In this document: in pieces, positions 14,882 to 14,949 of the stretch
Numbering within the stretch: position 1 is the first letter of the stretch
Layout: each line of letters opens with the position of its first letter
DNA from: Octopus vulgaris
Lineage: Eukaryota
Direction: 5' to 3'
Length of the DNA: 64,000 nucleotides
Assembly: GCA_951406725.2 (NCBI GenBank)
Contig: OX597843.1
Location: forward strand, 13,268,001 to 13,332,000
Translations under genes and position numbers: made by a program
Notes under the pieces: model-generated
What the model saw: the letters and a program-made list of their open reading frames with translations, nothing else
Databases searched by the model: none
What the model was told of the DNA's origin: nothing

Positions 14882-14949
14882 GAACGACCCTTCATCAGTT
14901 GTCGGCTGCCTATCTACTCCTCATTTCGAGCATTCAACAACAATATGAG
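14882..14949 (-). ncRNA. Candidate strand-swapped (pseudoknotted) hammerhead motif
   Basis: Minus strand: CUCAU-A-UUGUUG uu GAAUGCUC GAAA UGAG ...15 nt... CGACAA CUGAUGA AGGGUCGUUC. Confidence 0.55.

Follow-up and report, generated by a model that had tools for sequence, protein, structure and literature searches.

Can a hammerhead ribozyme be assembled from core blocks in a permuted order, and if so, which strands make up its stem II and what kind of element carries it? This question is raised by a locus on the minus strand of a 64,000-nucleotide stretch of the Octopus vulgaris genome (the window in the following), for which an initial annotation had proposed a strand-swapped, i.e. non-circularly permuted, hammerhead. 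On this strand, the S block reads CUCA-U-A (14949-14944) and then UUGUUG (14943-14938), the G block consists of GAAA (14927-14924) and UGAG (14923-14920), and the C block of CGACAA (14904-14899) and CUGAUGA (14898-14892). The blocks follow one another as cut site, GAAA and CUGAUGA, that is, in the order S-G-C, and the proposed permutation is borne out: CUCA/UGAG makes a stem III of 4 bp plus the U16.1-A15.1 pair, and UUGUUG/CGACAA a stem I of 6 bp including one G-U, both paired as originally drawn. The constituents of a hammerhead core are likewise present, namely the CUGAnGA and GAAA boxes, U-H at the cut site and the A15.1-U16.1 pair, and the cut is predicted between 14944 and 14943, at the annotated position.

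In the available text of Eckert et al. (2023; PMC10085705), the hammerhead is split into blocks S, G and C, giving a scheme of six permutations, in which the initial drawing corresponds to a type SGC. According to the same text, type SGC (HRIMA-1 and its variants) was shown to cleave, CUGAnGA and its adjacent paired nucleotides were assumed to be inseparable and, bar one GCS candidate, none was found in the genome of a known organism, type SGC coming from metatranscriptomes.

A descriptor for this arrangement (stem I of at least 5 and stem III of at least 4 pairs, S-G-C order) finds three places in the window (14898 and 49986 on the minus strand, 18366 on the plus strand) against one match in 200 shuffled windows, and a chance origin of the motif is therefore rejected. 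A search of Rfam with 14780-15010 gave three matches at E ≤ 10, none to a hammerhead model, as expected since the block order differs; these three weak matches, to C/D snoRNAs, were rejected. In the Rfam scan of the whole window, only microsatellite-driven microRNA matches appeared among the 150 of 626 matches listed.

The motif lies within a copy of a dispersed repeat, family A in the following, and is laid out as follows:

14796-15012, minus strand: family A repeat copy, ORF-less, 5'-truncated, 217 nt, with the whole motif inside; 84-87% identity to other copies (blast against L005, L012, L013, L015 and L030)
15003-15008, minus strand: P0a, 5' strand of a closing helix, P0; GACCCU in the family, GAGCCU in the window copy (one mismatch)
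14969-15002, minus strand: hairpin between P0a and stem II, with outer arms 15002-14997 and 14974-14969; three of the six outer pairs change on both sides in the family
14964-14968, minus strand: IIa, upstream stem II strand, from G10.1; GAGCA in the family, CAACA in the window copy (pairs 1 and 3 broken)
14957-14962, minus strand: P4a (CUGCCU), part of a helix tying stems I and II, the 'I' helix of type SGC
14944-14949, minus strand: IIIb, U16.1 and A17; predicted cut between 14944 and 14943
14938-14943, minus strand: Ib, stem I strand 3' of the cut site
14928-14932, minus strand: IIb (UGCUC), with C11.1 as its last base
14920-14927, minus strand: core box GAAA (G12-A15.1) and IIIa (UGAG)
14906-14911, minus strand: P4b (AGGCAG); both P4 strands deviate from the commonest family form in one and the same pair
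14892-14904, minus strand: Ia (CGACAA) and core box CUGAUGA (C3-A9)
14886-14891, minus strand: P0b (AGGGUC), immediately 3' of A9; initially drawn as a stem II strand

The span first annotated, 14882-14949, held the S, G and C blocks but omitted the 5' third of the motif (15008-14950). In the window copy, G10.1-C11.1 of the family fold is lost, and only a downstream alternative to stem II can form; the computed energies are -0.4 kcal/mol for upstream stem II, -6.2 for P0 and -6.6 for the downstream helix, GAAUG/CGUUC, which had been proposed as the extended stem II. The lost pair makes it most likely that the window copy is a decayed insertion. A transcript of it could fold as a plain type SGC, and for this copy alone the energies make that fold the likelier one. 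For the same reason, the suggestion that the structure is under selection holds for the RNA of the mobile element and not for the window locus. The insertion lies about 7 kb before the rhodanese-domain exon of a dual-specificity phosphatase gene, and nothing points to a host function. The exons of this MAP-kinase-phosphatase-like gene are on the plus strand (rhodanese, 21757-22416, E 7e-10; dual-specificity phosphatase, 40342-40857, E 5e-9). Elsewhere in the window, dispersed repeats contain tandem arrays of 62-67 nt and 101-113 nt units (4322-4730, 6323-6866, 10216-10579, 26335-26937 and 33188-33943).

Related families and their carriers

Three further motifs of this kind are found in the window:

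13742-13876, plus strand: family B (candidate 1 of the initial annotation), same architecture, with P0, hairpin, stem II (GAAGGA/UCCUUC), P4, III and I (one mismatch); predicted cut after 13819; element copy about 13661-14098
18298-18389, plus strand: family C, same architecture, in the 3' UTR of an RT-RLE non-LTR retrotransposon; predicted cut after 18331; copy 18000-18449
49874-50126, minus strand: family F, worn copy with the same block order, core box at 49986

The initial annotation took the family A copy for a probable diverged homolog of candidate 1. The two are indeed homologous, but candidate 1 lies on the opposite strand (plus, 13814-13870) and belongs to a different, younger family; they are independent insertions that resemble each other only around the motif (blast, 78% over 52 nt). 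A single element with two inverted ribozymes was rejected, given the different families and ages and the other repeats in between.

In both families, the strand before GAAA has a perfect partner upstream of the cut: UGCUC in family A pairs with GAGCA, 21-25 nt upstream, and family B has the stem II listed above. We therefore collected more families with patterns in which GAAA precedes CUGAUGA. In the 2.8-Gb genome, one such pattern gave 824 matches against 30 for the reversed order and a second 5261 against 227 reversed; the matches listed fall into at least ten families.

For family A, there are 2530 first-look candidates in the genome, of which 40 were scored, and 928 matches to an exact 19-base anchor; three quarters of sites pass this pattern. 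In longer copies, units of about 720 nt that have no ORF form partial tandems, and inverted, truncated copies are found next to (TA)n; the tandem spacing is 724 nt at L013 and 846-858 nt at L057 and L060, which puts the unit at about 720-860 nt. ORF-less partial tandems, inverted 5'-truncated copies and microsatellite targets are the marks of a non-autonomous Penelope-like element (PLE) or retrozyme, and family A has them all; its candidate ribozyme, unlike retrozyme hammerheads, is not of type I. The insertion pattern is that described for Penelope-like elements in the available text of Craig et al. (2021; PMC8557442), where the Naiads share (TA)n targets, 5' truncation, partial tandems and inverted copies with families A, B and F. 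In contrast to a Naiad, in which one ORF encodes GIY-YIG ahead of the RT, family A is ORF-less, and we found no sequence tie to one. A search for ORFs upstream of families A, B and F found no conserved frame, and no autonomous partner was found for family A. Ahead of stem III, a UCGA palindrome is retained in families A and B alike.

Other families have coding carriers. Families C and E follow an ORF with a reverse transcriptase (RVT_1, E 1e-15) and a C-terminal RLE motif, its stop about 57 nt before the ribozyme motif in family C. RVT_1 is the only Pfam domain found in this ORF, and a protein search returned 261 RT relatives, with no clade name among them; going by the RLE motif, we take the element to be HERO-like. 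A search of viral contigs with the RLE protein gave no match. Its close relatives (50-68%) are mostly on contigs of 2.4-6.6 kb, about the length of one element. Family D is the 3' end of Naiad_Ovul, with a letter-for-letter match over the stretch from GAAA to the core when compared by eye with the published consensus. Beside a long RLE element, L163 (675-2159, minus strand) contains canonical Penelope-like pieces with RT followed by GIY-YIG, and minimal hammerhead-like motifs in canonical order (CUGAUGA ... GAAAC) also occur in the genome (L115:2248, plus strand; L114; L127).

A four-block fold and its covariation

The segments of the predicted fold are shown to follow one another as P0a-(hairpin)-IIa-P4a-IIIb-UH-Ib-IIb-GAAA-IIIa-P4b-Ia-CUGAnGA-P0b. 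The strand before GAAA finds its partner not in the letters after CUGAnGA but in a segment about 20-30 nt upstream of the cut site, so that A9 and G10.1 have no backbone link and are instead held together by P0. Helices II, P4+III and I cross one another, P4 pairing the 3' side of IIa with the 5' side of Ia. The links between these segments are kept short: 0-6 nt between IIa and P4a, 1-5 nt between Ib and IIb, and 0-3 nt between P4b and Ia. P0 is clear in families A, B, C, E and G and in a metagenome group described below, starting 0-1 nt after A9 in all of these except C (about 8 nt), and indistinct in families D, F and H.

Evidence for the upstream stem II comes from a comparison of eight families (A, B, C, D, F, G, H and the metagenome family), each represented by one natural copy. 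These were picked as intact representatives, a choice that favours all helices equally and not one side. Within a fixed 40-nt window, we scored the best helix anchored at C11.1 and, as control, swapped the strands among families. For the upstream window, the scores sum to 46.5 against a swapped mean of 28.5 (P 5e-5 over 40320 permutations; P 0.0014 for the six less related families only), and for the downstream window to 27.5 against 28.6 (P 0.68). With the upstream partner, the first stem II pair is G-C in all eight families, and 38 of 40 stem II pairs are Watson-Crick, compared to 14 of 40 downstream, in a count that is lowered for family H by a mis-parse. The other helices also exceed their swapped controls, with 23 of 24 pairs in III, 32 of 32 in I and 25 of 32 in P4 (P 5e-5 for the latter). 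Left out of this test were family E, whose stem II letters are those of the metagenome family, A2 and A3, whose letters are those of A, and I, K and B2, which are single worn copies; I, K, B2 and A3, all known from single worn copies, have no clear stem II. Automatic parses of single copies are noisy, with an upstream stem II scoring 5 or more in 8 of 20 family A1 and none of 10 family E copies.

Within family A, the model pairs 92.3% of 1012 cells over 26 aligned copies, compared to 37-46% in slid controls. This alignment combines 11 of the 30 best blast matches with 15 of 30 anchor matches, all non-truncated, and P0b is fixed by the search anchor in 15 of its 26 rows. Changes on both sides occur in three pairs of the hairpin and in two pairs each of P4, III and I; the compensatory change claimed for stems I and III at the outset is found here, and the helices vary with compensation, whereas variation without it had been named as what would refute the structure. 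No both-side change was seen in P0 or in stem II (GAGCA/UGCUC, 90% paired) among these 26 copies, and the covariation of stem II accordingly rests on the comparison between families. An RLE-type group of 11 copies is 96% paired, with both-side changes in P0, P4 and III; stem II was left uncounted there because its G runs were misaligned.

Judged from these comparisons, the families have the three helices of a hammerhead around a core with G10.1-C11.1, and they covary. From type SGC, the predicted fold retains the S-G-C order, the far-side helix between stems I and II and the short link between these stems. What it does not retain is the unbroken Block C, with a stem II strand directly after CUGAnGA: a downstream stem II can be drawn only for the worn window copy and, in weak form, for families A and B. 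The helix GAAUG/CGUUC of the initial annotation, though it can form in the window copy, is therefore wrong for the family, whose conserved partner lies upstream of the cut.

Recurrence in metagenomes and Naiads

A metagenome search used a pattern of the G and C blocks of family E, with four IIb letters fixed and nothing specified upstream. It returned 68 loci, 16 of them with stems I and III; one of these, GC-rich and with a 2-bp stem III, was counted as chance. The remaining 15 fall into the group of this fold and comprise four sequence types, one of them seen 12 times; five are cut by a contig end. All ten loci with the upstream part present show P4 and an upstream stem II of 5-6 bp, and nine of the ten have the hairpin and P0 in changed letters. 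Four loci lie 90-182 nt downstream of an RLE C-terminus. From a similar pattern, none of 80 viral loci fits the fold.

Craig et al. (2021; PMC8557442) report that Naiads have no canonical hammerheads; in the part of their material available to us, 10 are marked HHR_core and 8 HHR_half_core, with no fold given. In 9 of 54 Naiad consensi, a reading by eye recognised the four-block order in other letters: these are one Clytia element, Naiad_Amil, _Anas, _Aacu (one mismatch each in I and II), Naiad-2_Movir, _Plae, _EuTe (with P0 and hairpin), _Obim and _Ovul. This reading covered 60 of 62 CTGATGA, 30 of 43 CTGAAGA, 25 of 25 CTGAGGA and 23 of 23 CTGACGA places in the available supplement, and motifs split by line ends can be missed by it. 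The fold accounts for the marked Naiad_Ovul and Naiad-2_Movir as well as for several unmarked Naiads. In the same supplement (File S5, as far as available), nematode Naiads have apparent canonical-order hammerheads with a long, interrupted stem II, yet are listed as core or half core. Several arthropod Naiads there have GAAA well upstream of CCCC-CUGAnGA, which has a hairpin of its own after it, possibly a further permutation.

Family E (L132-L156) and the acanthocephalan Naiad_Plae are nearly identical in stem I, the link between stems I and II, stem II and the UU link. This likeness suggests shared ancestry or an exchange between element classes.

Predicted cleavage, alternatives and meaning

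Hammerheads cut after U-H, with G12 as base and G8 as acid, leaving a 2',3'-cyclic phosphate on the upstream and a 5'-OH on the downstream product. We consider it probable that the fold described here is a hammerhead of four blocks, permuted in a non-circular manner and situated towards the 3' end of retroelement RNAs, and that it acts as a monomer and processes the element RNA. The fold is supported by covariation; its chemistry and role we infer. The folded core would cut after U-H by the standard chemistry. In partial-tandem transcripts, with units of about 720-860 nt, two such cuts would release a unit-length RNA, which could be circularised and then reverse-transcribed into (TA)n by a Penelope-like RT acting in trans, a route modelled on the proposal of Cervera and de la Pena for canonical PLE hammerheads. 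As P0, II, P4 and III bridge the cut, both products would remain clamped; this would promote re-ligation or a template jump and account for the many copies that cross the site and for those that start there.

The 5' ends of genomic copies were examined for family B in the first 70 of 260 copies from a downstream anchor, in a 140-nt view. Relative to the predicted cut, 21 copies span the whole view, 5 end at -27 to -86, 5 at -12 to -16, none at -3 to -11, 8 at -2 to +1, 14 at +5 to +12 and 17 further 3'. In family A, the cut is the starting point of 3 of 30 copies, with no start at -3 to -30, and in both families together 11 of 100 ends fall at -2 to +1. Rows L231, L178 and L205 of family B and L256 and L242 of family A were corrected by eye. 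None of 25 family D copies begins at the cut; at L111, likewise of family D, both copies begin at the cut position after a TA run. The cut-site peak is one of several, and RT stalls or TA microhomology may therefore explain it. The family B ends at -12 to -16 start at the UCGA palindrome, one of them joined to TTAGGG-like repeats (L195); those at +5 to +12, the largest pile (L170-L232), lie at the stem I-II link and are mostly fused to (TA)n. Since H at the cut was built into the descriptor, the lack of G at this position carries no weight as a test.

Three other explanations have to be weighed against this one. Families A and B might be ordinary members of type SGC, with stem II formed by the letters after CUGAnGA and the upstream pairing serving as an off-state or switch partner. 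They do have A-GGG after the core, from which 3-4 pairs to the strand preceding GAAA can form, PLE hammerheads usually have one unpaired base between 9 and 10.1 (available text of PMC4209133), and the energies of the window copy point the same way. Intact copies, however, reach about -14 to -18 kcal/mol with upstream stem II and P0 against -0.7 to -4.4 downstream, the downstream helix has its outer pair in 7 of 26 aligned copies and both-side changes in none of its eight pairs, and the median number of downstream pairs is 0-1 in families C, E, F, G and H and 2 in D; we regard this explanation as unlikely. Somewhat less likely still is a conserved fold that no longer cuts, i.e. a hammerhead-derived binding site for the RT or the endonuclease in the 3' UTR. 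It would suit the many copies that cross the site (31 of 70 in family B, 17 of 30 in family A), and in the RLE element, a cut about 57 nt past the stop and about 120 nt before the 3' end would part the ORF from the start of copying. Against it, the core letters, U16.1-A15.1 and G10.1-C11.1 are all kept despite a complete turnover of the stems across cnidarians, an acanthocephalan, a crustacean and octopus, and some 5' ends coincide with the cut.

Lastly, a canonical or dimeric hammerhead could be built from blocks that join in trans or between tandem units, with their order in cis being incidental. Canonical PLE hammerheads act as dimers (available text of PMC4209133), the elements occur in partial tandems, and the UCGA palindrome of families A and B could be counted in favour. 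Yet all helices, of 4-7 bp, are complete within about 130 nt, no tandem reading yields the C-G-S order, and the conserved short IIa-P4a, Ib-IIb and P4b-Ia spacings fit a monomer; joining in trans therefore appears highly improbable.

A wider reading of the monomeric four-block fold goes beyond what we consider probable and is put forward tentatively, as something we would rather doubt than assert: an active seventh topology, opened between A9 and G10.1, may be an old 3'-end module of Naiads, RLE elements and ORF-less parasites across animals. It would be a clamp-ribozyme, whose products remain base-paired through four helices, leading to re-ligation or circularisation of the RNA or to a jump of the RT across the nick. 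The module may have moved between two classes of retroelement, as the near-identical stems I and II and linkers of the acanthocephalan Naiad and octopus family E suggest.

Self-cleaving RNAs of other classes are known from non-LTR elements, namely HDV-like ribozymes in R2 and others and twister in Schistosoma, where they process the 5' end. The present case is alike in placing a predicted self-cleaving RNA in a non-LTR element, but it is a hammerhead form and lies in an RT-RLE element's 3' UTR. In 2015, Weinberg reportedly described hammerhead variants with extra helices. The closest relative is type SGC (available text of PMC10085705), which shares the order cut site-GAAA-CUGAnGA, a short I-II link, an extra far-side helix between I and II next to stem III and at least two pseudoknots; joining its ends and opening it between A9 and N10.1 gives the exact order found here. 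It differs in its unbroken Block C, whereas the present fold has the stem II strand at its 5' end, and P0, often with the hairpin, fills the junction; it also stems from metatranscriptomes and was shown to cleave, whereas the fold described here is found in animal retroelements, with cleavage predicted from sequence. Minimal type I hammerheads of canonical PLEs and of non-LTR retrozymes (PMC4209133; bioRxiv 10.64898/2026.07.22.740005; both in available part) likewise occur in non-autonomous units that are tandem and microsatellite-associated, with the core close to the 3' end and a proposed cut-and-circularise role. In contrast to these, which have the C-G-S order and a stem III of 1-2 bp and act as dimers, the present order is II-S-G-C, the stems are full and the motif looks monomeric.

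The available texts of PMC3088659, PMC10162972 and PMC13725137 describe no split at A9/10.1. In the literature covered, which lies mostly outside subscription journals, we found no hammerhead split at this point and none in the 3' UTRs of Naiads or RLE elements, and type SGC only in Eckert et al. (PMC10085705, available text, with its supplement covered by word search). The split-core order thus seems to be undescribed, to lie outside the published permutation scheme and to recur in retroelements of several animal groups.

If the four-block fold is what we propose, there would be a hammerhead topology beyond the six of the three-block scheme, and the A9-G10.1 link would be dispensable. For the genomes of known organisms, this would be the first case of a non-circularly permuted ribozyme, at thousands of copies, and would place a hammerhead in the 3' UTR of RLE non-LTR elements. 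It would also offer an answer to why Naiads seemed to thrive without hammerheads, and an explanation of the HHR_half_core marks. Since standard descriptors and covariance models are blind to the split form, the current counts of ribozymes in animals would then be too low.
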